The position numbers and the translations under genes were made by a program. From Patescibacteria group bacterium (lineage in GTDB: Bacteria; Patescibacteriota; JABMPQ01; JAQVVF01): DNA of 64,000 nucleotides. The stretch covers positions 321,511-385,510 of the forward strand of contig JBAZSC010000001.1 in NCBI GenBank assembly GCA_041662665.1. The letters run 5' to 3'. Shown here piece by piece: positions 23,401 through 53,515 of the stretch (its first letter is position 1; every line of letters begins with the position of its first letter). The notes beneath the pieces were generated by a model, which saw only the letters and a list, made by a program, of their open reading frames with translations, did no database searches and was not told the DNA's origin.

Positions 23401-23413
23401 AATTTTTTATAAA

Positions 23414-26316: not shown

Positions 26317-26321
26317 TTCGC

Positions 26322-29968: not shown

Positions 29969-30001
29969 GGGCCAATGTGGCTCTTTTTTTCTATAAAAAT
30001 T

Positions 30002-30038
30002 GGTGCAATTCGAGGCCTTAAGGCATTAGTGAGATTAG
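30002..30038. promoter_or_regulatory. copy 2 of the GGCCTTAAGGCATT motif
   Basis: GGTGCAATTCGAGGCCTTAAGGCATTAGTGAGATTAG. It shares the AATTGCAC and TAATCTCAC arm words with copy 1, each reverse-complemented in place. Confidence 0.6.
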
Positions 30039-31099
30039 TTTATCCCCATTTTGAGACGCTGATCTTCTTCTTTCAATTTATCAATTATTGGATCTAGGTC
30101 ACCGCCCAAAACATAGGGTATACCGTTAGTCGTAAATTTGATTCTATGATCAGTAACTCTATCTTGTGGAAAATTATAAGTTCTAATTTTTTCTGATCGA
30201 TCACCAGTTCCGATTTGCATTTTTCTTTCAGCTCCAGCTTTTTTTGTTCTCTCTTCTTCCTGTTGTGCTAGTACTCTTGATCTCAAAACTTTCATCGCTT
30301 TTGCTTTATTTTTTTGTTGAGATCTTTCATCTTGGCAGGAAGCAACAATGCCAGTAGGTAAGTGTGTAATTCTAATTGCTGAATAAGTTGTATTAACACT
30401 TTGTCCGCCAGCGCCTTGAGAACAAAAAGTATCAATTCTTAAATCTTTCGGTTCTATTTTAAATTCAACTTCTTCTACTTCTGGCAAAACAACAATTGTT
30501 ACAGTTGATGTTTGAATTCTACCTTGTTTTTCTGTTACTGGCACTCTTTGAACGCGATGAACGCCACTTTCATATTTTAAATCTCGATAAACATTATCGC
30601 CTTTGACCGCAAAAATAATTTCTTTAAAACCTCCAATACCTGTTCGATTAGAATTCATTATCTCAATTTTCCAACCTTTTTTTTCAGCAAATCTGGAATA
30701 CATTCTAAATAATTCTGCTGCAAATAAGGCAGCTTCCTCTCCACCAGCTCCAGCTCGAATTTCCATAATCGCATTTTTTGAATCATTTGGATCTTTTGGC
30801 AATAGCTCAACTTCTAAATCTTTCTTCAATTTTTCAAATTCTATTTTTAAATTAGTTAAATCTTCATTTGCCATTTCAATCAATTCTTTATCATTTTCAG
30901 ACTTAATTAATTCTTCATTATCTTTAATTTGTTTCGTTATTTCCTCATATTTATTTATCAAATCAACAGTATCTCTTAATTCAGCAGCTCTTTTAGATAA
31001 TTTTGTCAATTTTAAACTGTCTGAAACTATTTCAGGAGAGCTTAATTCTTGATTTATTTTATTATATTCTTCTTTAATCTTTTTTAATTTTTCTTCCAT
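30035..31099 (-). CDS. prfA: peptide chain release factor 1
   Basis: GGQ motif (SQGAGGQSVNTTYSAIRITHLPTG) and the RF1 domain layout. Confidence 0.9.
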   Translation of the reverse strand: MEEKLKKIKEEYNKINQELSSPEIVSDSLKLTKLSKRAAELRDTVDLINKYEEITKQIKDNEELIKSENDKELIEMANEDLTNLKIEFEKLKKDLEVELLPKDPNDSKNAIMEIRAGAGGEEAALFAAELFRMYSRFAEKKGWKIEIMNSNRTGIGGFKEIIFAVKGDNVYRDLKYESGVHRVQRVPVTEKQGRIQTSTVTIVVLPEVEEVEFKIEPKDLRIDTFCSQGAGGQSVNTTYSAIRITHLPTGIVASCQDERSQQKNKAKAMKVLRSRVLAQQEEERTKKAGAERKMQIGTGDRSEKIRTYNFPQDRVTDHRIKFTTNGIPYVLGGDLDPIIDKLKEEDQRLKMGIN

Positions 31100-36548: not shown

Positions 36549-37289
36549 ATGAAGACCCCAACGATTCAAGAGCTACTAAAGGCAGGTGCACATTTTGGCC
36601 ACAAAGCAGCAAAATGGAATCCAAAAATGAAACAATATGTCTTTGCAAAAAAAGAAGGCATTTATATTATCAACCTTTCCAAAACAAAAGAAATGCTTGA
36701 AAAAGCATTAGAATATGTTGCCGAAATTGCCAAAAAAGGCGGAAAAATTGTTTTTATCTGCACAAAAAGACAAGGCAAAGATATTGTTAAAAAAGCTGCA
36801 ATTTCTTGCAATATGCCTTATGTTACAACAAGATGGCTTGGCGGAACTTTGACAAATTTCAAAACAATTCACAACTTAATTCAAAAATTAAGAACATTGG
36901 AAAGAAAAAAAGAAACTGGTGAAATGGAAAAGAATTATACAAAATATGAAAAGCAATTAATGCTTGAAGATATTGAAAAATTAAATAACAAAATCGGTGG
37001 TTTGAAGAATTTAGACAAATTGCCAGAAGCTTTATTTTTAATCGATGTTATGGATAACAAATCAGCAGTTAAAGAAGCAAGAGTTGTCAATCTTCCAACA
37101 GTTGCATTAGTTGATGCAAATGCCAATCCAGAAATCATCAATTATCCAGTTCCTTGCAATGATGATGCTATCAAAGTTATTGATTTAATGGCAAATACAT
37201 TTGCAGAATGCATTAAAGAAAATTATAAAGAACAAAAGCCAACAGTAGGCAATGTAACAAAAGTTACAGGCCCACAAAATTTGAGATAA
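36549..37289 (+). CDS. rpsB: 30S ribosomal protein S2
   Basis: MKTPTIQELLKAGAHFGHKAAKWNPKM... canonical S2. Confidence 0.95.
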   Translation: MKTPTIQELLKAGAHFGHKAAKWNPKMKQYVFAKKEGIYIINLSKTKEMLEKALEYVAEIAKKGGKIVFICTKRQGKDIVKKAAISCNMPYVTTRWLGGTLTNFKTIHNLIQKLRTLERKKETGEMEKNYTKYEKQLMLEDIEKLNNKIGGLKNLDKLPEALFLIDVMDNKSAVKEARVVNLPTVALVDANANPEIINYPVPCNDDAIKVIDLMANTFAECIKENYKEQKPTVGNVTKVTGPQNLR

Positions 37290-37302: not shown

Positions 37303-38715
37303 ATGGAAAATCAAAATCAAACATCCTATGATGCTTGGTTGAAAGAGTGTGATTTTCTAGCAAAAGTCAGAAAAGAAAACCCAAAAAAGATAGAACGACA
37401 AAACCCAATTATCGAGGATCAAAAATTACTTCAAGATTACGGAATTGAAATAATTTCTGATCTACCTTTGGGTTTTTTGCGTTTTTCGCCAGCTGATTTC
37501 ATTGTTGAAGAAATTACTCAAGATGGCAGAATTACAACTATTGATCCAGAAAATGATCCAAGCTTAGCAGATCAAGAAGGCGAGACAGTTTATGCTGATG
37601 TAGTTAAAATTGGCATTCCAACATTAGAAGCAATTGATCGTATTGCCAAAAAATTGAATGTAGGCTTAGGACAAATTGGCTATTCTGGCATGAAAGATGC
37701 CATTGCTATTACTTCTCAAAAATTTAGTTTTAGAAAAATATCCAGAGATAAAATAAAAGAATTAAAACTTCCAAATATTTATTTAAAAAATATAATTGTT
37801 AGCAAAGGCGCTTTGCAACCAGGAAATTTGATTGGTAATAGATTTAATATTTTTATCCGAACAAAAGGTTTGTACGATCCAAATTTGTTATTAGAAAAAT
37901 TAAACCATATTAAAGAAGTTGGCTTTTATAATTTTTTTGGCAGTCAACGATTTGGCGGAGCTAGGGGAATTGGCCACAAGCTTGGTATAATTTTACTTCG
38001 TGGTGATTATGAGTTAGCAGTTAAAGCATTTTTAATTGCTCAAGGCAAGAATGAAATTCCATTAATCCAAGAATTAAGAAACAAAGCCAAAGCAATTTAT
38101 GGCAATTGGAATGATATGATCAAAATTTATGAACAAATGCCATATACTTTTTCTGGCGAAATAAGAGTTTTAAAAGCTTTGACGCATGAACCAAGTGATT
38201 ATATTAATGCCTTATTAGCAATCAAAGAACAAGTCAAACTTTGGGCTTATGCTTACGGTAGCTATTTATTTAATAAAAAAATCTCACAATTAGTTCGCAA
38301 CAAAATTAATCTGCCAGCTAAATTGCCATTATTTTTGAGCAATGAAAGATCAGACAAAGATTTGTATGAAGACTTTTTAGAAAGCGATAAAACAAAAAAT
38401 TTCCGAGAATCAGCTCGTCCATTTCCATTTATCCAGTTGCGTCATTATGAAGTTCCAACATTATTATCTCCAAAAATTAATTCTTTTACTTGTACAGAAG
38501 ATGGAGTTGCCATTAATTTTGAATTACACAAAGGTGCCTATGCCACAACATTTTTATCTCATATCTTTACTTTGACAATGGGCTTGCCATTGCCAAGTTG
38601 GGTCTCACAAAAAGAAATTGATACCTTAAAAATATTAGAGCTAGGCACAATAGAAAATATCAAAAAAGTTTTTGAAGAATACTGGTCAAATGTTTTAACA
38701 AATTCTGGTAAATAA
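37303..38715 (+). CDS. truD: TruD/Pus7-family tRNA pseudouridine synthase
   Basis: GxKD motif (QIGYSGMKDAIAITSQKF) and the FxNYFGxQRFG block. Confidence 0.65.
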   Translation: MENQNQTSYDAWLKECDFLAKVRKENPKKIERQNPIIEDQKLLQDYGIEIISDLPLGFLRFSPADFIVEEITQDGRITTIDPENDPSLADQEGETVYADVVKIGIPTLEAIDRIAKKLNVGLGQIGYSGMKDAIAITSQKFSFRKISRDKIKELKLPNIYLKNIIVSKGALQPGNLIGNRFNIFIRTKGLYDPNLLLEKLNHIKEVGFYNFFGSQRFGGARGIGHKLGIILLRGDYELAVKAFLIAQGKNEIPLIQELRNKAKAIYGNWNDMIKIYEQMPYTFSGEIRVLKALTHEPSDYINALLAIKEQVKLWAYAYGSYLFNKKISQLVRNKINLPAKLPLFLSNERSDKDLYEDFLESDKTKNFRESARPFPFIQLRHYEVPTLLSPKINSFTCTEDGVAINFELHKGAYATTFLSHIFTLTMGLPLPSWVSQKEIDTLKILELGTIENIKKVFEEYWSNVLTNSGK

Positions 38716-38828
38716 TTCTGCGTTTTCTGCGTTCGATTCTGCGTATTTCTGCGGAATCGTTTTTAACGCAGACTAACGCAGAATCTAACGCAGAACGTGC
38801 AGAAAATAATCTACACGTTTTTTTTGTG

Positions 38829-38859
38829 CAAAAAAAAGACCGACTCGGACGAGTCAGTC
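38829..38859 (-). terminator. rho-independent terminator for the GC-rich gene
   Basis: GACTGACTC-gtcc-GAGTCGGTC hairpin on the minus strand followed by T8. Confidence 0.6.
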
Positions 38860-38905
38860 TAGGTAGGGTGCGAAAGGAACGGGTGTTGTGAGTGTGTGGG
38901 TAGGT

Positions 38906-39493
38906 CTATCGGGTGGGGGGGCTCAGCGTGTAGGTGTAGCGACCGGGGGCGAAGCTGATGTGCAGCTCTTCCTGGGTCACCATGCCGTCGCGGGGGACTG
39001 GCACGTTCACGGTGTCGAGCCTGTACAGCTCTTCACCCTTCTCGTTGACGTTGGCCCAGACGTTGCAGTAGGGTGTGGTCTGGTTGAAGAGGTTGACGAC
39101 ACGATCGGGCAGCTTGAGATCTTTTCCTGTCTGAGTGAGCACCAGCTGCAGGAACCTCTTCCTGCCACGCTTATCCTCACGCCAGAACCAGAAGGCATCC
39201 GTCACCTTGTAGCCAGCCATGCCGAGCTCGCTCAGGAGTGCGCTCATGTCGACCATCTGCCGATTGGCAGCGATGTTCGTGCCGGTGTCATCCATGCCGT
39301 CTCTCTTGACACCGAACTCGATTCCGAGATCCTTTGCCTCCTTGCGGTGCTTCGCAGCCACCGCCTTTGCATCGTACTCCTTCTGAGGGAGCAGAGCCTC
39401 GATCCAGCCGCCGATTCCGGCGACCTTCACGAGGATGATGAGGGGCATGAGCCCCAGACCTTCGAACTGATCAACCAGGACCGTGCGGCTCAT
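38906..39493 (-). CDS. hypothetical protein encoded by a GC-rich (~60%) gene with GC3-saturated codons
   Basis: Start at MSRTVL, preceded by AGGAGG, a 5-prime UTR and an exact TTGACA-17-TATGAT promoter. The antisense + ORF 38888-39583 is a GC artefact. No recognisable domain. Confidence 0.55.
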   Translation of the reverse strand: MSRTVLVDQFEGLGLMPLIILVKVAGIGGWIEALLPQKEYDAKAVAAKHRKEAKDLGIEFGVKRDGMDDTGTNIAANRQMVDMSALLSELGMAGYKVTDAFWFWREDKRGRKRFLQLVLTQTGKDLKLPDRVVNLFNQTTPYCNVWANVNEKGEELYRLDTVNVPVPRDGMVTQEELHISFAPGRYTYTLSPPTR

Positions 39494-39542
39494 CGGAAAC
39501 CTCCTGTCAGTGGTGGCACTCACCCCGATTCCAGGGCTTTTC

Positions 39543-39571
39543 ATCATATCACAGCACCCTATTTTTGTCAA
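39543..39571 (-). promoter_or_regulatory. consensus sigma70-like promoter TTGACA-17-TATGAT (minus strand)
   Basis: Seen as TGTCAA ... ATCATA on the + strand with 17-bp spacing. Confidence 0.6.
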
Positions 39572-39645
39572 TGGCATTTTTGAAGTGGGAAGTGGGATCT
39601 TGGGATATGAGAAATGGGAACCTTAAATAAGCCAAAAAAAGATAT

Positions 39646-39682
39646 TTGTGCGATTAGTGGCCTTAAGGCATTCGTGCGATTT
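39646..39682. promoter_or_regulatory. copy 3 of motif GTGCGATT-agt-GGCCTTAAGGCATT-c-GTGCGATT
   Basis: Direct 8-mer arms flank the palindromic CCTTAAGG core; located upstream of the promoter of the GC-rich gene. Confidence 0.6.
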
Positions 39683-39689
39683 GTAAGCA

Positions 39690-39712
39690 TAAAAAAAGAG
39701 GTAAAAACCTCT
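39690..39712 (-). terminator. rho-independent terminator for the MYG1 gene
   Basis: AGAGG-tttttac-CCTCT hairpin plus T7 on the minus strand. Confidence 0.6.
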
Positions 39713-39730
39713 ATCTAAAAGAACGCTTAA

Positions 39731-40708
39731 TTATGCTTTGAGTGCAACCTTCGCTAGTGCAATCGCTCCTTCTCTTGATTTCGCTACTACAATATGCCCA
39801 TCTTTATGGCAGTTATCAGCATCAGCAACTCCAGTCAATTTGACCAAAGTTGAGCCGCGCTGTCCATGCCATGCTTTTGGCAAGTTTTTACGATAGCGTT
39901 TGCCAGTCCCATATCCAGCATTCACAACATGTACCATCCAGCCATTGTTAACGCGATGAACAACAAATTTGATCAGCGGTAATTCTTTAACAACTGATGA
40001 CCAAGGCATCGGATCATTCAATACAACAATTCTTGGATCATCAGATTCAGGTACCGCTTTCAACACCAGCTCTTCAGCTCTGATGACGCCTGCAGCTCTT
40101 GCAATTGTCCTTTTTAGATAGACCTTGGCAAATTCCAAAGCTTCAAAAAAAGCAACATCTGGATCTCGATCATTTTCATCCCAAGCTGGATTATAATTAT
40201 CAATCACATTTGAAATAGTGTGTGCAGAGATATCTTCCACTTTTCCTTGAAAAATCTTGTAGCCATTGTCCTGTGCATCAATTGGAATCACCAGCCACTT
40301 TTCTACAAGCTTAGCTACTTTTTCATTTCCATCACAAATTGCTACTCCAAACTTTTTCCAGACCAATCCAAAAGAAGCATAGGGCAGATGTGCGGTCACT
40401 TTCTTGCCAAACAATTTCCACATCAGCAAGTTGATAATATGCTTGAAAATCCAAGCAAACCGCAAGACTTTGAAAAAGCCTTCACGTATTCCAGCTCCGC
40501 CAAACATGTGATGATCAAAGTCGCCAGTATTTGGATCATTTTCGCCGCCGACATCAACTCGAAAATCAGCCTTTTCGTAAACTTCCTGATCGCGAGTCCG
40601 AAAAATTTGAATGATAAAGAGCAATGCCAATGCTGCACACGCAAACACATCATCAGCATGAAACCTTCCATTATGCGTTGCAACAACCTTATGTTCCTTC
40701 TCAATCAT
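39731..40708 (-). CDS. MYG1/UPF0160-family metal-dependent hydrolase
   Basis: N-terminal ATHNGRFHADDVFACAALAL and C-terminal GWMVHVVNAGYGTGKRYR...HKDGHIVVAKSREGAIALA match MYG1 blocks. RBS GAGGAGGAAGAGG. Confidence 0.65.
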   Translation of the reverse strand: MIEKEHKVVATHNGRFHADDVFACAALALLFIIQIFRTRDQEVYEKADFRVDVGGENDPNTGDFDHHMFGGAGIREGFFKVLRFAWIFKHIINLLMWKLFGKKVTAHLPYASFGLVWKKFGVAICDGNEKVAKLVEKWLVIPIDAQDNGYKIFQGKVEDISAHTISNVIDNYNPAWDENDRDPDVAFFEALEFAKVYLKRTIARAAGVIRAEELVLKAVPESDDPRIVVLNDPMPWSSVVKELPLIKFVVHRVNNGWMVHVVNAGYGTGKRYRKNLPKAWHGQRGSTLVKLTGVADADNCHKDGHIVVAKSREGAIALAKVALKA

Positions 40709-40742
40709 TTCCTCTTCCTCCTCTTCGTTTTCGCAGCTAATT

Positions 40743-40771
40743 AAAATATCAGAAAATAACTAAAATGTCAA
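40743..40771 (-). promoter_or_regulatory. sigma70-like promoter TTGACA-17-TATTTT (minus strand)
   Basis: TGTCAA ... AAAATA on the + strand with a 17-bp spacer, ~35 nt upstream of the MYG1 ATG. Confidence 0.5.
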
Positions 40772-40787
40772 CTGAATGTAAAATATA

Positions 40788-40826
40788 TTTGTGTTATTTG
40801 TGGCCTTAAGGCATTTGTGCATATTC
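40788..40826. promoter_or_regulatory. copy 4 of the GGCCTTAAGGCATT motif
   Basis: TTTGTGTTATTTGTGGCCTTAAGGCATTTGTGCATATT, ~20 bp upstream of the -35 of the MYG1 promoter. Confidence 0.6.
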
Positions 40827-40847
40827 GAGAGTATAAAAAATCAGCCG

Positions 40848-42353
40848 TTATTTCGACTGATCAACTCGGTTAAAGGACATTCCAAATGCGACTCTGTAGG
40901 CCGCGTACGCAGGTTCAAGGTACTCTCTTTCATCTGAACAAATATGTTGTTCACAACAAGTCAAGAAATAGTCAGCCTGTTTTTTGTCATGTCTCTTCGG
41001 CATTGTGAAAAAGTAGACAAAAGGCAGATACATTTCTGGCCTGCGTTTGTCATCATCAACCAGCATTTCCAAAGCTTGCAAAGTCCTCAGCATTTCAGAT
41101 AGCTTTGATCTGCCAATTCTTGATTTCTCAAGATAGATGAACAGAAGATTAACAGAAATTGCAGCAATGATTTCAGTATCATCAAAGGCCTTGATTGCTT
41201 CTTTGCATGTTGTTGCAAGAACATCAAGCCTTGTTGCTTTCATTTCTGGATCCGGAAGATGAGCGATTGTATGCCGATGTTCTTTCAGATGTCCAAGAAA
41301 TGCGCGTGTTGCCTGAATTGACTTTTCATCATCAACTCCAGCTTCGCGGCATTTTACCAAGTACTCGATTGCTTTCGCAAAAGTGCTTGGCTTTCTGGCA
41401 TAGAAAAAGACAAAAGCTGCATAGATTCTTGGTGGAACTCTGACACTCAAACCTTCAGCTTTTGCAAGCAGTTCATGCATTTCTTTTGATTTATCATCTC
41501 TGAATTTCTTTGACCATTCCAGATAGACATACAACAATCCTTCTATGGCTTGAATCAAGAAAGTAGGCGAATCTTGTAGATAGCTGATCGCTTCCAAAAA
41601 GAGCATCTCAGCTTCAGCAAGCTTTAGTCTTTGTTCATCAAGATCTTCAATCTCTTTGACAGCTTTGCGTTGATGTTCAGCATAAGCAGAACAAGCAGTT
41701 CCAACAAAGCTCAAGGCCAGAGATCTATTTTCTTTGAACTGAACAAAGAAAATCAATGCATCAGCAAACTTGTCCTTGGCGATCATCACTTCAATGTAAT
41801 CTTTCACCAGATAACCAACTTGTTTATTTTCACCATAATACTTCAGTAAGTGGGCAAGTTGAACTTGCGCTTTTTCAAAATCATCTTGAGCAAGATAGAT
41901 TCTTGCCATCATGCAATTTGCCTGACAAGAGAAGGGATTGATTCTCAAGGCGTCTTCAGCGTATTGCCTTGCATCATCAAATCTCTTTTGCTCGAGGCAA
42001 GTCTTAGCCTGAATCAGATAGAAATCAGTATCTTCATCAGAATCGCTAAACAATGCAGTGAGTTCGCTGATTTTTGCATTTTCGCGATCAGGAAAGAATC
42101 TCATCAAATAGCTTAGCTTTGCCATCGCCTGATCTTTTTGACCAGATTTATGCAAAGCATGAATCTGAAGATTCATTGCCAAACCATTGCAAGGATCTTC
42201 TCCAAGAGCTTTTTCGCAATGAACTAATACACCAGCAAAATCATTCTGTCCTAAACAAGTCGCCGCTTTTGCACAAGAATCAGGTTCAAGTGTTGATGAA
42301 TCACCAAGCAATTCAAGTAAATCACCAAGATTAAGATCTTCTGGCTCAGCCAT
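40848..42353 (-). CDS. TPR-like helical repeat protein
   Basis: 501 aa of helical TPR-like repeats; RBS ACGAGGAGGAAGAGA before the ATG. Confidence 0.6.
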   Translation of the reverse strand: MAEPEDLNLGDLLELLGDSSTLEPDSCAKAATCLGQNDFAGVLVHCEKALGEDPCNGLAMNLQIHALHKSGQKDQAMAKLSYLMRFFPDRENAKISELTALFSDSDEDTDFYLIQAKTCLEQKRFDDARQYAEDALRINPFSCQANCMMARIYLAQDDFEKAQVQLAHLLKYYGENKQVGYLVKDYIEVMIAKDKFADALIFFVQFKENRSLALSFVGTACSAYAEHQRKAVKEIEDLDEQRLKLAEAEMLFLEAISYLQDSPTFLIQAIEGLLYVYLEWSKKFRDDKSKEMHELLAKAEGLSVRVPPRIYAAFVFFYARKPSTFAKAIEYLVKCREAGVDDEKSIQATRAFLGHLKEHRHTIAHLPDPEMKATRLDVLATTCKEAIKAFDDTEIIAAISVNLLFIYLEKSRIGRSKLSEMLRTLQALEMLVDDDKRRPEMYLPFVYFFTMPKRHDKKQADYFLTCCEQHICSDEREYLEPAYAAYRVAFGMSFNRVDQSK

Positions 42354-42425
42354 TCTCTTCCTCCTCGTTTTTGCCTTTGACTTTCTGCTTTCTTTCTGTT
42401 ATTCTGAATCTGGAAGTTATCAATT

Positions 42426-42494
42426 TTATCCGCGTGCAATCCGATAAATCCGCGTTATTCGAAAAGCTGATTTTAACGGATTACATGCGGATAA
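42426..42494. promoter_or_regulatory. pair of inverted 18-bp repeats TTATCCGC(G/A)TG(C/T)AATCCG (operator-like)
   Basis: Copies at 42426-42443 and, reverse-complemented, 42477-42494. They lie between the divergent TPR gene and tsf. Confidence 0.4.
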
Positions 42495-42583
42495 AACTGA
42501 AAAATTAGTTATTTTGTTAAGAGCAAGAAAAAAAGAGCACTAAACATTATATAATATAATTATTAATTTGTCAATTTAAACGT

Positions 42584-43174
42584 ATGACACAAATAAAAAT
42601 GGAAGACGTCAAAAAATTACGCGAAATGTGTGGAGCTGGTTTTATGGACTGCAAAAAAGCTCTAGATGAAGCAAACGGAAATTATAATGAAGCAGTAAAA
42701 TTATTAAAGAAAAGAGGACAAGAGATCATGGCCAAAAAAGCTGGACGTGAAGCAACAGAAGGAATTATTGATTGCTATGTTCATGCTAATAAAAAAATTG
42801 GTTCAATGGTTGAAATCTTATGCGAAACAGATTTTGTCGCTAGAAATTCTGATTTTCAAGCTATGGCTCATGATATTGCAATTCAAGTTGCAGCTTCTAA
42901 TCCAATTTGTGTTTCACCAAATGATGTTCCAGCAGAAAAGTTAGCTGAATTAAAAAAAGAATGGCAAGAAGAAATCAACAAAATGGGCAAGCCAAAAGAA
43001 ATTGCAGATAAAATTATGGAAGGCAAAATTAAAAAATATTGTGAAGAAAACGCTTTAACAACTCAAGCCTTAGTTAAAGATCCAGAAAAAACTGTTCAAG
43101 AATTGTTGACTGAAACAACTGCAAAGTTGGGAGAAAAACTCGTGATAAAACGATTTGAACGTTTTGAAATATAA
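42584..43174 (+). CDS. tsf: elongation factor Ts
   Basis: MTQIKMEDVKKLREMCGAGFMDCKKALDEANGNYNEAVKLLKKRG, a canonical EF-Ts N-terminus. Confidence 0.9.
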   Translation: MTQIKMEDVKKLREMCGAGFMDCKKALDEANGNYNEAVKLLKKRGQEIMAKKAGREATEGIIDCYVHANKKIGSMVEILCETDFVARNSDFQAMAHDIAIQVAASNPICVSPNDVPAEKLAELKKEWQEEINKMGKPKEIADKIMEGKIKKYCEENALTTQALVKDPEKTVQELLTETTAKLGEKLVIKRFERFEI

Positions 43175-44112: not shown

Positions 44113-44904
44113 ATGAAAATAATTGCAGGTATCAAATTTAATGTTTTAGACAAGATCTATAATTTTGACCAAAATAATATTATACTAAATAAGGGTGATA
44201 AGGTCATTGTTGAGACAGAACAAGGTACAGAAATTGGCACCGTTGTTTTTGCTAACAAAAATGTTGATGAAACAAAGCTTGAATTTGCTTTAAAGCCAAT
44301 TTTAAGAAAAGCAACAACAACTGATACTGAAAAGCTTGATAATTATAAGATTAAGCAGGAAGAAGCTTTAAAAGTATGCAAAGAATTAGTTGGCAAACAC
44401 AATTTAGATATGAAAATAGTTGCTGCTAATTATACTTTTGATGGTTCAAAAATAATTTTTTATTTTACTGCTGAAAGCAGAGTTGACTTCAGAGAATTAG
44501 TAAAAGACTTAACAAAAAAATTTCAAAAATCAATTCGCTTGCAACAAGTAGGATCCAGAGATGTTGCTGCAAAATGCGGCGGATGCGGAATGTGCGGTAA
44601 GGAATTATGTTGCACAAAATTCTTAAAAGATTTTGCTAGCATCACAACAGATATGGCACGAGAACAACAAATGGTTCAGCGAGGATCAGATAGAATTTCA
44701 GGTTGTTGCGGAAGATTATTATGTTGTTTAGCATACGAAACAGAATTATATCAAGATTTAGCTAAAGATTTTCCAACAGTTGGCAAAAGAGTTAGAACAA
44801 AACAAGGAGTTGGAACAGTTATTGGCAGAAATCTATTAACCAGAAATTTGGATATATTGCTTGATGATAAGACAAGAATATCAGTTAAGCTCCCGGAGAG
44901 ATAA
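44113..44904 (+). CDS. PSP1-domain protein (YaaT/RicT-like) with Cys cluster
   Basis: N-terminal PSP1-like region and CGGCGMCGKELCC...CCGRLLCC. Confidence 0.55.
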   Translation: MKIIAGIKFNVLDKIYNFDQNNIILNKGDKVIVETEQGTEIGTVVFANKNVDETKLEFALKPILRKATTTDTEKLDNYKIKQEEALKVCKELVGKHNLDMKIVAANYTFDGSKIIFYFTAESRVDFRELVKDLTKKFQKSIRLQQVGSRDVAAKCGGCGMCGKELCCTKFLKDFASITTDMAREQQMVQRGSDRISGCCGRLLCCLAYETELYQDLAKDFPTVGKRVRTKQGVGTVIGRNLLTRNLDILLDDKTRISVKLPER

Positions 44905-45042
44905 TTTCTAATTATAAATTTCTAATTTCTATTAAATTCTTAATGAATTAATTTTCAAACCTAACGGCTAGTATAGACATTAGAAATTAATGCATTATTA
45001 ATTTAATAAAAATTAGAAATTAGAAATTGAAAATTAATAACG

Positions 45043-46226: not shown

Positions 46227-46336
46227 TTCGAAAATTACAAATGTCAAATTCCAAATTCCAAACAAATTACAAATCACAATATACAAAATCTTTGTAATTT
46301 GTTTGGAATTTGTTATTTGTAATTTTATTTAATCTC

Positions 46337-47098: not shown

Positions 47099-47963
47099 AG
47101 AAACTCGGTTTTCTATTAATCAAAAAAATAAACTTATTGTAAGTAAAAACAAGGTATAAAAAATAATCATTTAATTAAGATAAAACCGAGTTTCGCGTGA
47201 ATTCAAAAATAGAAATGCGCAAAACAAATTTTACAAATGAATCATTTTATCATATCTACAATCGCGGTACTGAAAAACGCGATATTTTTTTGCAAAATTA
47301 TGATTATTTTCAATTTATTAAATTATTAAGAAAATATAAAAATAATTTAGTTGAAATAATCTGCTATTGCTTAATGCCGAATCATTTTCATTTATTGCTA
47401 AAACAATTAAATAATAATGGAATCAGCAAGTTCATGCATTTATTAACAATAAGTTATGCAAAATATTTTAACAAAAAATATGATCATAGCGGAGTTTTAT
47501 TTCAGGGAAAATTTAAAGATGTCCAGATTTTGAGCTATATTCAATTGCTAAATATTTCAAAATACATCCATATAAATCCAGCTAAAGATCAGAATATTTT
47601 ATTAAAACAAAAAATAATTACATTAGAAAATTATCCTTGGTCTTCTTATAAAGATTATATAAATATCAGAAACGGAACATTATGTAATAAAACCGAAATA
47701 ATAAATTGTGTAGAAGGTAATTTTGTAAAAGAGTATAAAGAATTAATAAAGGCACATTTGATGAATTATAATGAGAGAAATTTGGATAAATTAATACTTG
47801 AATGAGTGAAATAGAAACTCGGTTTTCTATTAATCAAAAAAATAAACTTAATGTAAGTAAGAACAAGGTATGAAAAATAATCATTTAATTAAGATAAAAC
47901 CGAGTTTCATCATGTTGTAAATAATTGACACACGAAACTCGGTTTCTTCGGAAACCGAGTTTC
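47099..47963 (+). mobile_element. IS200/RAYT-like element: Y1 transposase gene flanked by 97-bp direct repeats plus a terminal REP-like hairpin
   Basis: Copies at 47099-47194 and 47813-47908 share 94 of 97 bases. Each carries GAAACTCGGTTTT ... AAAACCGAGTTTC. An extra perfect hairpin GAAACTCGGTTTC-ttcg-GAAACCGAGTTTC lies at 47934-47963. Confidence 0.65.
47197..47805 (+). CDS. tnpA: IS200-like / REP-associated tyrosine (Y1, HUH) transposase
   Basis: FYHIYNRGTEKRDIF, HUH motif CLMPNHFHLLL, and catalytic-Tyr region YIHINP. The start is GTG at 47197 or ATG at 47215. Confidence 0.8.
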   Translation: MNSKIEMRKTNFTNESFYHIYNRGTEKRDIFLQNYDYFQFIKLLRKYKNNLVEIICYCLMPNHFHLLLKQLNNNGISKFMHLLTISYAKYFNKKYDHSGVLFQGKFKDVQILSYIQLLNISKYIHINPAKDQNILLKQKIITLENYPWSSYKDYINIRNGTLCNKTEIINCVEGNFVKEYKELIKAHLMNYNERNLDKLILE

Positions 47964-48481
47964 AAAGAATGTGTTAATTTTCGCGCAAAATAAAACCGGG
48001 CAAAAGCTCGGTTAAGGGAACAAAGGGCAAAAAATCGATTCATCCAATTGGCGTTCATTTTATTGTCTTCTCCGTCAGGAGTTGGGGGAGTCGCTTGGCA
48101 CTTATAACTGTTAACTTTCAACTGTTAACTAGTTTTCAGTCGCCCATGACGTCCTCCTCTACCAATGGGGTAGAGGTTAGCATCGCCATAGTTTCAGGCG
48201 CGCCTTCCTCGACCCAGGGAACCAAAGATCAAGATGATTTATAACAATGTATTATAGCAAGCCTGTAGTATTTGTCAATAGATTTGGACAATTTAGTGTA
48301 ATTAGTAATGAGTAACTAGTAATTAGGCGAAAAAACTTGCAAAATTATTAATACCTGATATTATCAAAATTGTCAGTAATAATAGACAAAATAAGCTAAA
48401 ATAGCTTGTTTTTATTTTGCCTTGTTTAAAGCAAAATATGTCAAAATATCGAAAAAGATAATAAATATTTGTAAAAACCTC

Positions 48482-48510
48482 TTGACATGATAAAAATAGA
48501 GTAATATAAT
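48482..48510 (+). promoter_or_regulatory. perfect consensus sigma70 promoter TTGACA-17-TATAAT
   Basis: Exact hexamers with a 17-bp spacer. Downstream lies a non-coding stretch with 32-bp tandem repeats rather than a long ORF. Confidence 0.6.
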
Positions 48511-48574
48511 GCAGAGTTCTAAGCTCAAACCAAGCTCATTCCAAAATGTCAATCAGAGCAAACTAGTTTAACAG

Positions 48575-48654
48575 TCTAACCAGTTTAGGTTAACCAGTCT
48601 AACTAGTCTAACCAGTTTAGGTTAACCAGTCTAACTAGTCTAACCAGTTTAACC
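48575..48654. repeat. tandem repeat, 32-bp unit x2.5 (TCTAACCAGTTTAGGTTAACCAGTCTAACTAG)
   Basis: Two perfect units plus a partial third. Confidence 0.8.
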
Positions 48655-48974
48655 GCATTTCCGTCTATTTATTAGAGGAGGTGAAATGGTCTCCAGGGAA
48701 TAAATCTTTTCTTTAGTCCTTGCTGAGCCACTTCGGCCTCTAATAAATGGGCAGAATGAAATTTCCAATTACCAATTTCCAATTCACAATAAATTTTCAA
48801 TAAGCAATTTTCAATGACGACAGTGACGATTTGAAAATTAGTAATTGGTCATTTATTGTAAATTGATAATTGGAAATTAGAGATATGTAATCAGTAACTA
48901 GTAATCAAAAAATTGATTCCTAAATACTGATTGCGTGCGAGAGGGGACCAAGAGTCCTCGAGGAGGAAAGGACA

Positions 48975-49196
48975 ATGGCGAATTGCATCATCTGCCACCA
49001 GCGCGTTGCGAGCGGCGGTGACCGGCATGCCAAGGGGCAGTGTCCGGCGAAGAAGAAGGAGCGCGAGCAGAAGGAGAACGAGGTGCAGGCCGGCGATCTC
49101 GCGACCCCGGGTCGCGGAGACGTCGTGCCGCTGGCCGGCAAGACCAGCACCCAGCTCTCCAACAAGGGCAAGTCCCGGGGGTCCAAGTCGGGCTGA
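48975..49196 (+). CDS. small basic protein with CCHC-like zinc knuckle, encoded by a ~65% GC gene
   Basis: MANCIICHQRVASGGDRHAKGQC... K/R-rich tail, with CGAGGAGGAAAGGACA RBS. Third codon positions are almost all G/C. Overlapping ORFs in the other five frames are GC artefacts. Confidence 0.5.
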   Translation: MANCIICHQRVASGGDRHAKGQCPAKKKEREQKENEVQAGDLATPGRGDVVPLAGKTSTQLSNKGKSRGSKSG

Positions 49197-49379
49197 GCCT
49201 GACACGACCCACAAGACGAGCCCAAGTACTAGGTTCTAGTGTCGTTCCGTTTCATCCCCAAGTTCCCCAGATTTTTCTTCAGTTTTCCGCCAGTACCTTC
49301 CATGCCAGACTCTTGTCTGGCCCCACCTGAAATAATAATGATTACATTGTTATTTGAGGCGGTACATTAAAAAATGATC

Positions 49380-49550
49380 AATTTACAATTTTTCACCCTT
49401 CGGGTGACCACCCGCAGGGTGGCAATAAATTACCAATTACCAATTTTCAAAGCGACGATGGTCGTAATTGGAAATTGTTCATTGAAAATTTATTGGAAAT
49501 TGCAAAATTGGTAATTGCCACCCTACGGGTGGTCACCCGAAGGGTGAGAA
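49380..49550. repeat. composite palindrome: CCAATTT/TTCAATT word arms with GC-rich terminal inverted repeats
   Basis: CACCCTTCGGGTGACCACCCGCAGGGTGGC on the left pairs with GCCACCCTACGGGTGGTCACCCGAAGGGTGAG on the right. Same word family at 1830-1947, 48760-48900, 49920-50050 and 50850-50940. Confidence 0.75.
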
Positions 49551-49638
49551 ATTAGGGTTTGCGGTAAAGCAAAGATCTTAAAAAAGATTTTCGCCTTGCT
49601 GCAAAGTGCAGCCTATAGCAGAGAAGGAAAAGTAAACG

Positions 49639-49815
49639 ATGAACGATCAGATGGACGCGGCGGACCGGCGGATCATGGACGAAACGACTGTTCGGCTCGA
49701 AGGCCGGCAGGTCAAGTCCAGCCAGGGAGCTGGTTCCAGGTCGGCAGAAGTGCCAATCTGGAAGATCCGCGCGAGCCGTCGTGCTCTCCCCGCCATGGCA
49801 GTCTACGGCGACTAG
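49639..49815 (+). CDS. small basic hypothetical protein (58 aa) in a GC-rich segment
   Basis: ATG preceded by AGAAGGAAAAG, with GC3-rich codons. Below the track size cut-off. Frame chosen by RBS and GC3; the alternative track frame 49596-49886 starts with TTG. Confidence 0.35.
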   Translation: MNDQMDAADRRIMDETTVRLEGRQVKSSQGAGSRSAEVPIWKIRASRRALPAMAVYGD

Positions 49816-50148
49816 ACCTACCCCCAACTCTTCAGTTTTCCGCTCGTACCCTCCTGTGGTCACTTTTCGTGGCCACCTCAGCTTAAGCAACGATGTGATC
49901 GTTGAGTAAGTAGAGAACGTTACAAAATTATCAATTTCCAATTTACAATTCTCAATAAATTTTCAATGAACGATTTCCAATGGCGATACTCGGTCTGAAA
50001 ATTGAAAATTGGTAATTTATTGGAAATTGTAAAATTGATAATTGGAAATTAAATCTAGCTTTCAGCAGTTTGCCTCAAATTATTTTGAGACACACTATTG
50101 ATAGCTACATCTCGTCCTTTCACCAACTGAAGCACACAAGGAGGAAAA

Positions 50149-50814
50149 ATGCCAAGTAAAGACAAGCCAAGACATGTTTTTGTTAATTGCTTGTTTCATG
50201 AAAACGAAAGGCTTACAGTCACCAACAAGGATGGTGAATTAAAAGCCTGGGGATTTGATGGCGATGTAATAAGTATCATCTCGGAATCCATGTTGCTTAG
50301 CATATCGGGTTCCAATCTGCAACTTGATAAAAGAAAAAAAGCATTGTGTAGATATTTAAAGCTTTTCTTCAACGAAGGAAAACAACCTCCAGCAATTTGT
50401 TTTGAGCATGCAAGGAAGTTGGAATCTGTGTTGTTGCAAATGCGACGATTTCTTCCTAAGGAAAAAGCTAATGTCCAGATTTCTATGATTCCATATCAAG
50501 AAAGTCTGGATAAATGGGCAATCTGGGTAGCCGAAGTAAAAAGAAATAGAGATATTGAAGCTACGAGATTGTGGCGTGAGATTATTTCTAAGCATTTTCC
50601 AGATGATGAAAGTATTGCAGACGAGCAAGACGCAAAAGTGCTTGCTGATCGTCTGTCTTCTGAATGTGTTAGAGAATTATTTGATAAGATACGCAATACT
50701 GCACTTTACCGCAAATCAGAAAAATCTGAATTGCTGAAACAGATCGGATTGTACTTAGCAGAAAAAGCGTATGAAGAAGCAAAAATAAAACATGAAATAG
50801 ATTCTTGGAAGTAG
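50149..50814 (+). CDS. hypothetical protein (221 aa)
   Basis: AAGGAGGAAAA RBS; ~40% GC; no recognisable domain. Confidence 0.5.
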   Translation: MPSKDKPRHVFVNCLFHENERLTVTNKDGELKAWGFDGDVISIISESMLLSISGSNLQLDKRKKALCRYLKLFFNEGKQPPAICFEHARKLESVLLQMRRFLPKEKANVQISMIPYQESLDKWAIWVAEVKRNRDIEATRLWREIISKHFPDDESIADEQDAKVLADRLSSECVRELFDKIRNTALYRKSEKSELLKQIGLYLAEKAYEEAKIKHEIDSWK

Positions 50815-51247
50815 ATGACTGCATTTTAACCTCTGTATGTTTCCAGTTTTTATCAAGTTTTTAATGAATAATTTGCAATAGTTTGAAAATTAATTCATTG
50901 AAAATTTAATAAAAATTAATAATTAGAAATTAAAAATTCGCTGTCAGCCTTTTGCCTCAAATCATTTGGAGACAAAAGATTGATAGCCTGTCCCGTACTA
51001 TGTTTCTGGTGAATATAAAAAAACATTGATTACTTTAGGAATTTAATCAATGCAACAAACAATATTTATTAGATACTTAGTATGGGATTAATGCTAGAAC
51101 ACTGACAACTTGGAAGGTAAAAATAATAGTCAAAAGTGTTAACTGTTAAGTGTTAATGGTTAACTGTTTGAAGTTGGCACATCGCGGCCAGGCAAGGCCG
51201 CGTTCGCGCGCGAGTAGATTCCGCTTGTGTCAGAGGAGGAGAGCGAC

Positions 51248-53515
51248 ATGTCGACCAACTGCGAGCCGAAGAGCGTCAGCACCGTCAACACCGTCACCGA
51301 GGAGAAGGAGGTGAAGCCCGCCCGGGTGCGCAAGCCCCGGGTGAAGGTCGAGAAGGAAGAGCAGGAGCAGTTCAACGAGGATGGCACGAAGAAGGATGTG
51401 AAGGACGAGGCCCCGCCCAAGAAGCGGAGCCACCACAAGAAGGTCGAGAAGTCCGTCGCCGTCGAGACCGAGACCGCCGAGCCCGCCCCGCCCGCCGAGT
51501 CCACCCCCAAGGTGGCGTCGGTGGCGGTGGTCGAGCAGCCGGTCCAGGTCGCCCCGCCCGCCGCGCCCCAGCCCGAGCCCCCCAAGAAGGGCGAGGTCGA
51601 GGACGTCAACGAGGACGAGGACAAGGACGGCGAGAGCGAGGGTGAGGACGAGGAGCAGGAGACCAGCGAGGAGGCGCTGGAGGACGCCCAGATCAACGAC
51701 CTGGAGTTCCAGAAGAAGATGAGCGAGCTCCCCCGGCACGAGCAGATCCGGCGGCAGAAGGCCCGCAACCGGGTCATCACGAGCAACCGGCGCAGCCGCA
51801 AGACGGCGGCGCAGGACAAGAACCGCGCGGAGCACAACGAGATGCGCGAGGCCGGGCGGCCGGAGGTGAAGATCACCATCCCGGACCCCCTGATCTGCAG
51901 CGCCCACGCCGGTGAAGTCCTGAAGCTCGAGGACGCCTACTCGCTGAACAGCAGCGTGGTCTACGAGCTGACCCAGGTGAGCCAGGAAGGCAAGACCGAG
52001 GCGCAGACCAAGATCCTGAAGTTCGTGGTGAGCAAGCTCGCTCCGCTGTTCCGGTTCAACTGCGAGACCATCCCGGCCTACTGCAAGACGGTGGTGGACG
52101 TGCTGGCGAAGAACATCGCGGCCGTCCAGCCCCTCATCGCGCACGAGAAGAAGGCGCGGTGGGAGAGCCGGATCGTCATGCCCTACGCGGCCGCGCTCCG
52201 GCACTTCGCCGAGAGCAAGGCCGCGGTCGAGGGCAAGCAGCAGAACGTCAAGGACCGGCAGAACAAGGAGGCGTGGGCCTGGTTCGACGAGAACATCGGC
52301 AAGTTTCACGCCGAGCTGGTCGGGCTGCGCAGCGTCGAGGAGATCGTCGGCAAGATCGACATCCTGAACGGCCTGAACGACAAGTGTCTCGACACCTTGC
52401 GCCACCACTTCCTCGAGACCCTGCCCGTGATGCGCTACAGCGAGCCCGGCAAGATGCTGGGTCAGCTGCTGCGCGAGCGGGGCAAGAAGTACGAGCAGGT
52501 GCAGATCGAGGAGCAGCGGGCCCGCAAGGCCGAGGCCGACGAGAAGCGCAGGAAGGAGGAAGAGAAGGCTCTGGCCGGGCTGGGCGAGCTCGAAGGGCTG
52601 TTCGGTGGCGAGGAGAAGCAGGGCGAGGAGCAGGACGAGGAGCCCAGCGAGCGTGACGAGAACGAGAAGCGGATCGGCAAGTGGCTGGAGAAGCTTGTCG
52701 GCGGGAAGATGCACAGCGCGGCCGGGCTGATGACGCCCAGCGCCCTGCGCGAGATCTTCGCCGCGGATCCGGGCGCCGAGGTCTACTCGGCCTGCCCGTT
52801 CAGCCAGCAGGCGCCGGGGACCCAGTACTCCACCTACGTGAACCGGAAGGGCGACAACGAGCCCCTCTTCGCGACGGTGACGGTCCCGACCCTCGTGGTC
52901 GAGACCGACGACGAGGGTCAACCGATCTGCGACGGCAAGGGGCGGCCCAAGCCGTGGATCAACCCCCGTACGAGCAAGACGCAGTACGAGGGGCAGATCG
53001 CGGTGCTGACGAAGCACGAGGCCCGCTGGGCCGCGTCGATCCGCATCCGCCAGATGGCCGAGGAGCAGGTGAACAACGGCCGGTACGACTCGCTGGAGGA
53101 GGCCATCAACGGCATCCATCAGGAAGTCAACCAGGCCAAGACCAACCTCTGGGCGGCCAAGAAGGAGTTCAACGAGGCCAAGGTCTCCGGCGACCAGAGC
53201 CGCATCGACGCGGCCGAGGAGCGCCTGAACCAGGCCAAGGAGGTCATGAACCATCTGAGCGACGACCGTCGTCCGTGGTACCAGGGGATGCTCGAGGGAA
53301 GCCTCGGTGTCCTCAAGTACTACGATCTCAAGAACACGGTCGAGATGCTCAACAAGCCCCGTGAAGAGCGGCCCGCCAAGCGCAACACGCGCGGCGGCGG
53401 GACCCACGGCAACTACGAGCAGGAGCAGTCCCAGGGCGCGAGCGCGGAAGAGCAGGAGGCCTTCTTCCGCAGCCAGAACAACCAGAGCTTCGCCAACAAG
53501 GCCCGCCAGGTCTGA
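51248..53515 (+). CDS. large hypothetical protein (755 aa) with K/E/P/A-rich disordered N-terminus and coiled-coil segments, encoded by a ~65% GC, GC3-saturated gene
   Basis: ATG at 51248, 6 nt after GAGGAGGAG. Codons are almost exclusively NNC/NNG. The antisense 785-aa ORF (51230-53587) is a GC artefact (L/G/R/A-rich). Confidence 0.6.
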   Translation: MSTNCEPKSVSTVNTVTEEKEVKPARVRKPRVKVEKEEQEQFNEDGTKKDVKDEAPPKKRSHHKKVEKSVAVETETAEPAPPAESTPKVASVAVVEQPVQVAPPAAPQPEPPKKGEVEDVNEDEDKDGESEGEDEEQETSEEALEDAQINDLEFQKKMSELPRHEQIRRQKARNRVITSNRRSRKTAAQDKNRAEHNEMREAGRPEVKITIPDPLICSAHAGEVLKLEDAYSLNSSVVYELTQVSQEGKTEAQTKILKFVVSKLAPLFRFNCETIPAYCKTVVDVLAKNIAAVQPLIAHEKKARWESRIVMPYAAALRHFAESKAAVEGKQQNVKDRQNKEAWAWFDENIGKFHAELVGLRSVEEIVGKIDILNGLNDKCLDTLRHHFLETLPVMRYSEPGKMLGQLLRERGKKYEQVQIEEQRARKAEADEKRRKEEEKALAGLGELEGLFGGEEKQGEEQDEEPSERDENEKRIGKWLEKLVGGKMHSAAGLMTPSALREIFAADPGAEVYSACPFSQQAPGTQYSTYVNRKGDNEPLFATVTVPTLVVETDDEGQPICDGKGRPKPWINPRTSKTQYEGQIAVLTKHEARWAASIRIRQMAEEQVNNGRYDSLEEAINGIHQEVNQAKTNLWAAKKEFNEAKVSGDQSRIDAAEERLNQAKEVMNHLSDDRRPWYQGMLEGSLGVLKYYDLKNTVEMLNKPREERPAKRNTRGGGTHGNYEQEQSQGASAEEQEAFFRSQNNQSFANKARQV

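Follow-up and report, generated by a model that had tools for sequence, protein, structure and literature searches.

A truD-linked slot for a GC-rich, hypervariable gene in a Patescibacteria chromosome

Three minus-strand genes lie between rpsB-truD and tsf in a 64,000-nucleotide stretch of a Patescibacteria group bacterium (contig JBAZSC010000001.1; "the window" below is this whole stretch). Are they a recent foreign insertion, or a resident part of the chromosome? We assessed this by comparing the three genes, here called p196, MYG1 and TPR501, and their flanks with homologous loci (numbered with an L). We hold with moderate confidence that the block is a lineage-conserved accessory region of the chromosome in Patescibacteria (the candidate phyla radiation, CPR), made up of three autonomous single-gene units, rather than a recent foreign insertion. 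Within it, the p196 slot is a hypervariable-cassette architecture with a testable anomaly of composition and translation signals, and MYG1 and TPR501 are new members of known families.

A preliminary description had the layout right: the open reading frames (ORFs) are as it gave them, Pfam confirmed the flanks and the MYG1 and TPR identities, and p196 does have a high GC content at third codon positions (GC3), although its length is 195 aa plus a stop codon and not 196. The genes of the locus are:

36549-37289: rpsB, flank of the block, Pfam match (S2)
37303-38715, plus strand: truD, 470 aa, PF01142 match (E = 4e-65, 220.7 bits), convergent partner of the p196 family
38906-39493, minus strand: p196, 195 aa plus stop, GC3 0.81, hypervariable allele
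39731-40708, minus strand: MYG1, 325 aa, PF03690
40848-42353, minus strand: TPR501, 501 aa, TPR repeats
42584-43174, plus strand: tsf, PF00889, conserved flank in the window's clade only

The window has ~31% GC and its housekeeping genes a GC3 of ~0.20. Against this background the block genes are atypical (GC 0.40–0.60 vs. 0.31; GC3 0.33–0.81 vs. 0.20): p196 has a GC of 0.60 and a GC3 of 0.81, and MYG1 and TPR501 have GC3 values of 0.33–0.34, compared to ~0.20 in the neighbours.

The block and its counterparts in relatives

The same site is occupied in related genomes. L006/L007 and L015 have rpsB, truD, a p196 homolog and tsf without the TPR gene and MYG1, L004 and L010 have p196 and the TPR gene without MYG1, and the more distant L013 (TruD 60% and EF-Ts 83% identical) has the full TPR-MYG1-p196 trio. 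The truD site is occupied by p196 in all relatives, by the TPR gene in four, and by MYG1 in two to three lineages. TPR501 relationships track those of the flanking genes, consistent with a gene inherited vertically and lost in the L006/L015 branch. The preliminary description had read the block as inserted into rpsB-tsf and had proposed a synteny comparison; that comparison does not support insertion, as the truD-p196 pair and the accessory genes are syntenic in related Patescibacteria, and the homologous site is not empty in relatives as it would be for a genomic island. What the relatives share is the arrangement together with its unusual composition, the GC3 excess being conserved rather than giving way to ordinary values.

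We considered the alternative that the genes, or at least the GC-rich one, were recently acquired by horizontal transfer from a GC-rich donor, for example an actinobacterial host, and have yet to ameliorate. Such an origin would suit the sharply atypical composition, a codon usage resembling that of high-GC organisms and the presence of expression signals on every gene. One relative, L004, is moreover an NCBI metagenome-assembled genome labelled Candidatus Saccharibacteria, and Saccharibacteria live on Actinobacteria. However, the locus and its GC3 excess are kept in relatives that differ at 22–59% of 4-fold sites, the excess persists in genomes of 58–61% GC, and named p196 members come only from Patescibacteria and are tied to truD in the sampled lineages. 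No phage or viral homologs of p196 were found. The block is also without a mobility gene, tRNA target or flanking direct (att) repeats. Nothing in 38716-42583 encodes an integrase or transposase; a tRNA occurs no nearer than 45832, and a Y1 transposase no nearer than 47197. Recent transfer is therefore very unlikely and largely refuted already. The block resembles genomic islands in that its base composition and codon usage are atypical and change sharply at the edges, but differs from them in being syntenic, in keeping its composition in diverged relatives, in lacking mobility genes, and in having boundaries that coincide with a transcript and not with att-like repeats. It does not resemble an integron cassette either, as its genes have their own consensus promoters and no integrase was present in the window ORFs examined.

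TruD is no bystander: it proved to be the sole gene conserved beside the p196 family wherever the flank is readable, and its identity is confirmed by the PF01142 family profile. A p196-family gene stands tail to tail with truD in the window and in L004, L005, L006, L013, L015, L017, L018, L020 and L021; p196 is convergent with truD in 10 of 12 loci, the other two being short contigs without a visible truD. Members in L017, L018, L020 and L021 (~25% identity) are directly convergent with truD across a hairpin-containing gap of ~55–105 nt, and the other neighbours of these distant pairs differ (RelA/HAD; beta-CASP nuclease/RsmH; glycosyltransferase; UvrC/UvrA). Because truD adjoins p196 while the other neighbours vary, the conserved unit is the truD-p196 pair, and rpsB-tsf is interrupted by this pair in the ancestor of the window's clade.

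The p196 family comprises 88 cluster representatives, and its named members are limited to Ca. Uhrbacteria and the Patescibacteria group. The protein had no match in Pfam, PHROG, PADLOC or NCBIfam, and belongs to an undescribed, CPR-restricted protein family. The structure prediction suggested for it in the preliminary description was run: an AlphaFold2 (AF2) model from a 50-sequence alignment reached a predicted local distance difference test score (pLDDT) of 91.7, compared to 40 from six sequences, and searches of PDB and viral fold libraries returned no relative, such that the fold is predicted to be new. The model confidently places a hydrophobic N-terminal stretch in a beta-strand, and distant members lack this hydrophobicity. 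A phage or mobile-element origin was rejected (no PHROG match, no viral contig, no phage tblastn match), as was a defence system, since p196, MYG1 and TPR501 had no match to PADLOC defence-protein models. A Prevotellaceae match (L012; 29% identity over 77 aa) was treated as unreliable. Deeper p196 alignments contained no stretch conserved enough to search with.

Could the GC-rich gene be an artefact, either a mis-assembled or contaminant fragment or a misread of a 231-aa ORF on the plus strand? Gene callers did pick the plus-strand ORF in L001 and L002, and GC-rich DNA carries long shadow ORFs. Against this, contigs from three other samples carry the arrangement with 100% identity, so the observation is real and not an assembly chimera, and contamination is rejected on the same ground; the flanks are also conserved in relatives. 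The plus-strand ORF was rejected as a real gene because ortholog alignments show codon-position conservation in the p196 minus frame (position 2 > 1 > 3; 0.78/0.70/0.57), because there are 88 homolog clusters and homologs with a conserved N-terminus, and because the AF2 model is confident and driven by co-evolution. An artefact of either kind thus has negligible probability, and the plus-strand ORF is a GC-rich shadow of p196. Public gene calls annotate this antisense ORF and miss p196 (window 38888-39583, plus strand; L001 4518-5213; L002 3687-4382), and similar missed-gene errors, provoked by GC3-rich genes, are likely elsewhere in these genomes.

A fixed slot for divergent alleles

The expression signals of the three genes, located by promoter and terminator scans, are:

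42574-42546, minus strand: TPR501 promoter, TTGACA-17-TATAAT, 12/12, 10 nt from the tsf start on the opposite strand
40771-40743, minus strand: MYG1 promoter, TTGACA-17-TATTTT with extended -10 TG
40709-40771, minus strand: MYG1 promoter plus GAGGAGGAAGAGG ribosome-binding site (RBS), same design in the L013 ortholog
39571-39543, minus strand: p196 promoter, TTGACA-17-TGnTATGAT, extended -10 TG
39494-39571, minus strand: p196 promoter plus leader with AGGAGG RBS, from the promoter scan
40839-40862, minus strand: TPR501 terminator, overlapping the stop codon, conserved in L004 and L010
39697-39712, minus strand: MYG1 terminator, from the terminator scan
38837-38860, minus strand: p196 terminator, 10-bp stem plus T8

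The earlier description of three separately equipped genes was borne out almost in full: each has a promoter of the form TTGACA-17-TAxxxT, a Shine-Dalgarno (SD) site that is strong, and a terminator hairpin. The three best minus-strand promoter sites sit exactly upstream of the three genes, three minus-strand terminators come directly behind their stop codons, and the TPR501 promoter has a counterpart in L013. Nine promoters of such quality occur in the 64-kb window (block-shuffle mean 5.5, sd 2.3), and three of them fall, correctly oriented, in the block's three short gaps. The RBS is GAGGAGGAAGAG ahead of TPR501 and MYG1 and CAGGAGG ahead of p196. Across the p196 family, a perfect TTGACA followed by a 17-nt spacer that ends in TG and by a TAnnnT box is found upstream in 11 of 12 loci, genomes of 58–61% GC included, and an SD core precedes all 11 genes inspected (a 5-mer core in 10). 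Taken together, these signals suggest that p196 is probably strongly expressed.

We found that the p196 transcript body is far more divergent than its surroundings, with 33–65% amino acid identity between genomes whose flanks are 93–100% identical. L006 and L015 are close relatives by their flanking genes (EF-Ts 95% and TruD 91% identical, 4-fold p = 0.22), yet their p196 proteins share 33% of residues; at the DNA level the two are 93–100% identical through tsf and the promoter region, drop to 0.46–0.62 in the coding sequence (CDS), and recover in the terminator and truD. The left anchor of the slot comprises the promoter and ~20 nt at the start of the transcript (AAAAGCCCTGAATTCGGGG), a ~95-nt block that is near-invariant in the window, L004, L006, L007 and L015. 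The right anchor is the 3' arm of the terminator with its T-run; the window, L006, L010 and L015 share this arm (AGTCGGTCTTTTTTTTG), and L004 carries a variant that is almost identical. Between the anchors everything differs: the distal leader with the RBS, the CDS, the C-rich 3' untranslated region (UTR) and the left terminator arm. Break points ~20 nt into the transcript and inside the terminator indicate that alleles are exchanged within a fixed slot.

Allele relationships also disagree with those of the genomes. The left terminator arm is of one type in the window and L006 and of another in L004, L010 and L015, against the species tree, and the window p196 is 65% identical to that of distant L004 but only 37% to that of close L015. 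Mosaic terminators and incongruent relationships together point to recombinational exchange anchored in promoter and terminator, and the locus hence shows conserved flanks, divergent alleles, incongruence and mosaicism, as hypervariable cassettes do. Diversification by a diversity-generating retroelement was rejected, as the divergence spans the whole CDS and the UTRs; a reverse transcriptase gene was not specifically searched for.

We propose that homologous recombination, with the conserved promoter and terminator as its anchors, would swap p196 alleles, and that an abundantly expressed p196 would be under diversifying or frequency-dependent selection. Its role would most plausibly be in conflict or partner recognition, with a link to TruD and RNA metabolism.

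Several observations weigh against this proposal. Within-species copies are all 100% identical, which provides no polymorphism support for ongoing exchange, and the extreme divergence could partly reflect locally elevated mutation rather than allele import. Conserved residues in p196 (DTG, WxN, RLDTxN and TY) point to a biochemical activity that is fixed, hard to square with a purely antigen-like protein, and no signal peptide, transmembrane segment or catalytic motif was identified, no signal-peptide predictor having been run. Promoter strength, separate transcripts and p196 abundance are each read from sequence. The locus counts rest on approximately a dozen loci, and two metagenome scans for more, based on peptide patterns and on the invariant promoter, gave no hits. 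Lastly, the evidence on composition is divided, as the asymmetry of the 3' UTR fits RNA-level selection better and raised GC at first and second codon positions (GC1 and GC2) fits a mutational or conversion bias.

Hypervariable cassette loci with conserved flanks include the Clostridioides difficile S-layer cassette, the pneumococcal capsule locus and the O-antigen loci. The p196 slot is like these in its near-identical flanks, divergent alleles, incongruence, mosaic break points and signals for strong expression. It differs from them in that the unit is a single small gene, in that the anchors are its own promoter and terminator and not flanking genes, and in that p196 is GC3-saturated and tied to truD, with no secretion signal identified.

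GC richness and translation signals

The GC richness of p196 is a property of the family. Its GC3 is the highest among the flanking genes in 12 of 12 loci, at genome GC contents from 31% to 61%, for example:

Window: p196 GC3 0.81, flanking genes at most 0.34
L013: 0.88, flanking genes at most 0.38
L017: 0.93, flanking genes at most 0.81
L018: 0.95, flanking genes at most 0.84
L020: 0.56, flanking genes at most 0.36
L021: 0.49, flanking genes at most 0.33

Codon usage of the GC-rich genes is the mirror image of that of housekeeping genes: CTG, CGG, GCG, CCC, CCG and GGG dominate in the former and are practically unused in rpsB, tsf, truD and pyrH. F81 distances at 4-fold sites of flanking genes (d = 0.28–1.31) imply that 39–81% of a GC excess would be retained per lineage under neutrality. 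In this rough model, neutral decay from an ancestral GC3 of 1.0 predicts at most ~0.59 across the deepest split, compared to observed values of 0.74–0.88. The shortfall and the family-wide pattern indicate that the composition is maintained and is no leftover of transfer, and we infer that p196 GC richness is actively maintained.

The 3' UTR of p196 (38861-38905, minus strand) is C-rich and G-poor, with 23 C and 2 G in the first 45 nt. Similar 3' UTRs occur at 49816-49860 and 53516-53560 (both plus strand) and in L004, L006, L013 and L015, a pattern resembling a rut-like site or a site for a C-rich-binding protein. The sequence TAGACCTACCC after the stop codon is common to p196 and a 58-aa GC-rich ORF at 49639-49815. 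This ORF belongs to a second GC-rich island at 47.8–53.6 kb (47800-53600) in the same style as the block:

48975-49196: 73-aa ORF (orf73)
49639-49815: 58-aa ORF (orf58), with TAGACCTACCC after the stop
50149-50814: p221, mid GC, GC3 0.32, directly upstream of p762
51248-53515: p762, GC3 0.96

The island's ORFs each follow a GAGGAGG-type RBS and are separated by AT-rich word-repeat hairpins. Relatives of p762 (p617, p654 and p686) are syntenic, with GC3 of 0.91–0.93 where the frame could be fixed, and this family too is hypervariable, its L006 and L015 members being 35% identical between flanks that are ~95% identical; it had no Pfam, PADLOC or NCBIfam match. p221 is 30–34% identical to the middle of the GC3-saturated p617/p654 (L004 453-1001; L006 1560-2111) and is a lower-GC paralog or fragment of this hypervariable family. 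Within the island, 48482-48690 has a perfect TTGACA-17-TATAAT followed by a leader with a ~35-nt tandem repeat (CCAGTTTAGGTTAACCAGTCTAACTAGTCTAA, 48580-48650); next comes a GAGGAGGTGAAATG start with only a very short ORF.

Two causes for the maintained GC can be named: either selection on the mRNA, for a stable, structured and SD-dependent message, or GC-biased conversion accompanying frequent recombination. Boundaries as sharp as the transcript speak for RNA-level selection, as does the strand asymmetry of the C-rich, G-poor 3' UTR; raised GC1 and GC2 speak for conversion, as does the fact that GC richness goes together with hypervariability in two families.

A more deflationary account makes both the GC richness and the hypervariability neutral by-products of very high transcription or of a recombination hot spot, through locally elevated mutation and GC-biased conversion that are limited to the exchanged or transcribed segment, composition itself not being selected. 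The GC-rich segment and the swapped transcript body do coincide, GC1 and GC2 rise together with GC3, and the second GC-rich family, p762, is likewise hypervariable. There is precedent as well, in that GC-biased conversion has been reported for bacteria (PMC4450053) and AT-rich Cryptosporidium has GC-enriched variable genes (PMC10438818). However, GC3 of 0.8–0.96 against a background of 0.2 would need a bias of unprecedented strength, alleles at 33–65% identity are too divergent for internal heteroduplex, and the strand asymmetry of the 3' UTR (C 23, G 2) is not predicted by a symmetric conversion bias. Moreover, orf58 and orf73 are GC-rich but conserved at 64–70%, and so are not hypervariable. 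On balance we regard the neutral account as possible but doubtful.

Cryptosporidium offers a likeness in composition, a minority of lineage-specific genes, fast-evolving and involved in host interaction, being far GC-richer than an AT-rich genome, with positive selection reported on most of the GC-enriched genes (PMC10438818). Unlike in that eukaryote, where the pattern is subtelomeric and regional, the genes here are bacterial and stand singly at fixed internal positions; their boundaries follow the transcript sharply, and they have a promoter and SD class of their own.

We also assessed translation signals by looking for an SD core in the last 20 nt before the start codon. None of the 14 housekeeping genes in the window has even a 4-mer core, whereas all nine cassette genes have one, and the dichotomy recurs in L004, L006, L015, L013, L021 and L018 with independently called genes. 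In the self-promoted, GC-enriched cassette genes the cores are mostly of the strong GAGGAGG type. Several housekeeping genes have a -10-like box only ~10–20 nt from the ATG, which suggests that their mRNAs may be leaderless or short-leadered. The anti-SD motif is reported to have been lost in part of the Parcubacteria (PMC9297842); the window holds no rRNA, and hence no 16S 3' end to read for it.

SD-independent translation with few SD-led genes has a paradigm in bS21/rpsU of Bacteroidota. The window is similar in that housekeeping genes lack an SD and a small subset has a very strong one, and dissimilar in that the SD-led subset consists of accessory, GC-enriched, self-promoted cassettes and not of a ribosomal-protein autoregulatory gene. 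A bolder idea is that p196, p762 and the small ORFs, all of them GC-rich, self-promoted and SD-led, may constitute an expression class of their own, outside the normal SD-less translation machinery; it is speculative enough that we give it hardly any weight. In an extreme form, such genes could be built for expression in a host bacterium after DNA or RNA transfer, analogous to T-DNA, a reading prompted by the canonical sigma-70 promoter, canonical SD and host-like GC-rich codons. In a milder form, a dual translation regime, SD-less for housekeeping genes and SD-dependent for structured mRNAs, may switch a hypervariable conflict or host-interaction regulon.

Accessory genes, repeats and wider meaning

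MYG1 matches PF03690 over its full length (E = 1e-55, 189.7 bits, cut-off 22.1; residues 9-323 on profile positions 2-318 of 318) and aligns full length with a solved MYG1 exonuclease (E = 2e-21), with HNGxFHxD, DHH and DNG conserved: its FDHHMF and HNGRFHADD align with YDHHQ and HNGTFHCDE of the solved structure, 24ah. The family is a 3'-5' RNA exonuclease with a catalytic DHH motif (Grover et al. 2019, PMC6582341), and the window protein is accordingly a predicted 3'-5' exoribonuclease and, by its motifs, a bona fide family member. The preliminary view of MYG1 as mostly eukaryotic did not survive, since we found more than 2,400 prokaryotic homologs at E < 1e-10, many of them named from CPR phyla, including Magasanikbacteria, Paceibacterota and Taylorbacteria, and NCBI already annotates the window protein as "MYG1 family protein [Patescibacteria group bacterium]". 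It has a ~30-residue insertion compared to typical CPR homologs of ~295 aa. The window member shares with the solved MYG1/UPF0160 proteins (PF03690) the full-length match, the DHH motif and the N-terminal HNGxFHxD, and is unlike the typical family in being bacterial (CPR), with an activity predicted from sequence, on a repeat-bounded, self-promoted indel cassette. The repeats that bound it are:

39637-39677: 41-nt element copy 1, palindrome GCCTTAAGGC between GTGCGATT-like repeats, direct repeat D1, 88% identical to copy 2
40780-40820: 41-nt element copy 2, bounding the MYG1 unit with copy 1

The copies are spaced 1,143 bp apart around MYG1. In L004, the spacer between the TPR gene and p196 consists of the terminator that follows TPR501 in the window, a single copy of the repeat and the region of the p196 promoter, and no MYG1 remnant was found in it; the MYG1 unit is therefore a discrete 1,143-bp, repeat-bounded indel. 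The 41-nt element is a candidate recombination site that bounds MYG1 only. Its core, GGCCTTAAGGCATT, does precede two of the three promoters as first described, but it is a genome-wide intergenic element and not specific to the block (at 39659, 40802, 30014 and 26332; 4 matches vs. 0.53 expected). Further 41-nt copies of the GCCTTAAGGC element lie at ~26320-26360 and 30000-30040, each beside a terminator and consensus-promoter unit. The element, a consensus promoter and a GAGGAGGAAAGA-type RBS also frame an NYN-domain RNase gene (start ~26484) and a small lipoprotein-like 124-aa gene (29594-29968), both of intermediate GC, which places the block in a class of self-contained cassettes spread over the genome.

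TPR501 matches TPR_19 (46.8 bits, cut-off 25, E = 4e-12), TPR_17 (29.3, cut-off 24.4) and TPR_14 (25.5, cut-off 23.5) at residues ~100-181, within a repeat region of ~60-210, and its C-terminal ~290 residues match nothing in the searches made. Only five homologous clusters were found among 5.8 billion, four of them verified beside the p196 slot, which shows TPR501 to be a clade-restricted orphan TPR protein found only beside this slot. The L010 ortholog (895-2375) is in two pieces in different frames, overlapping at residue 449, as a result of a frameshift or sequencing error, and the gene may be decaying there.

We asked whether the three proteins form a functional module in which a TPR scaffold, MYG1 and p196 act with TruD in RNA or tRNA processing. 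The trio recurs in L013 at only 60% TruD identity, and a third lineage probably has it as well, P0094 and P0003 lying on contigs of equal length. TPR501 is confined to the surroundings of the slot, and the neighbours (truD, rpsB, tsf and MYG1) are related to RNA or translation. The genes nevertheless have separate promoters and terminators and different composition classes, and they come and go independently, with L006 and L015 lacking both TPR501 and MYG1, L004 and L010 lacking MYG1, and no remnants. Distant p196-truD pairs have no TPR or MYG1 neighbour, and MYG1 is widespread in CPR outside such a context. A module is therefore unlikely. In the reading of three autonomous units, MYG1 would be an independent 3'-5' exoribonuclease cassette, and TPR501 may be an adaptor or chaperone of p196.

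Two palindromes built from repeated words flank the block genes:

38716-38804: word-repeat palindrome I1, TCTGCGT words, 38-nt arms 82% complementary, -48 kcal/mol, z = -9.4
42414-42506: word-repeat palindrome I2, in the ~185-nt TPR501 leader, facing tsf, -38 kcal/mol, z = -7.2

They were rejected as island boundaries or att sites because they differ from each other and are of a generic kind, word-repeat hairpins between genes, of which the window has at least 35. Members of the class are ~80–130 nt imperfect palindromes, each made from its own short repeated word (for example 44902-45036, 48761-48884, 23295-23405, 46239-46325, 60565-60675 and 58152-58226); a close variant of the last (GTCATTCTGAGCGAAGCGAAGAATCCCAT) adjoins p196 in L006, L015 and L010. 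No comparable I2 hairpin was apparent in the L013 tsf-p495 spacer as printed, and Rfam searches of leaders, UTRs and palindromes returned only sub-threshold miRNA-hairpin matches and no family. The palindromes may be REP/MITE-like elements (repetitive extragenic palindromes or miniature inverted-repeat transposable elements), possibly linked to IS200-like Y1 transposases. Genes for such transposases (PF01797) lie at 47197-47805 (plus strand) in the window, at 14497-14961 in L006, and at 10411-10890 and 12800-13285 in L015, one of the two L015 copies having inserted between truD and rpsB. The transposases are candidate mobilisers of the palindromic repeats similar to RAYTs (REP-associated tyrosine transposases). 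Separately, genes for 23S-rRNA-IVP/Avd-like four-helix bundles are present in L004 (6900-7286), L015 (6798-7184) and L006 (4769-5134), between pyrH and tsf or near TrmB, and are not in the window.

For annotation, the locus exposes an error, an antisense shadow ORF annotated on two public contigs, and it cautions that composition-based calls of foreign islands can mislead here, as the anomaly is inherited and maintained. The GC contrast is extreme (GC3 0.8–0.96 vs. 0.2) and has transcript-sharp boundaries, such that the locus is a natural test case for how GC is held high against AT-biased mutation, by mRNA selection or by GC-biased conversion. CPR/Patescibacteria account for much of bacterial diversity, and their lineage-specific genes mostly lack an explanation; here a compact signature of truD adjacency, an extended -10, a strong SD in SD-poor genomes and GC3 saturation picks out an undescribed family among them.

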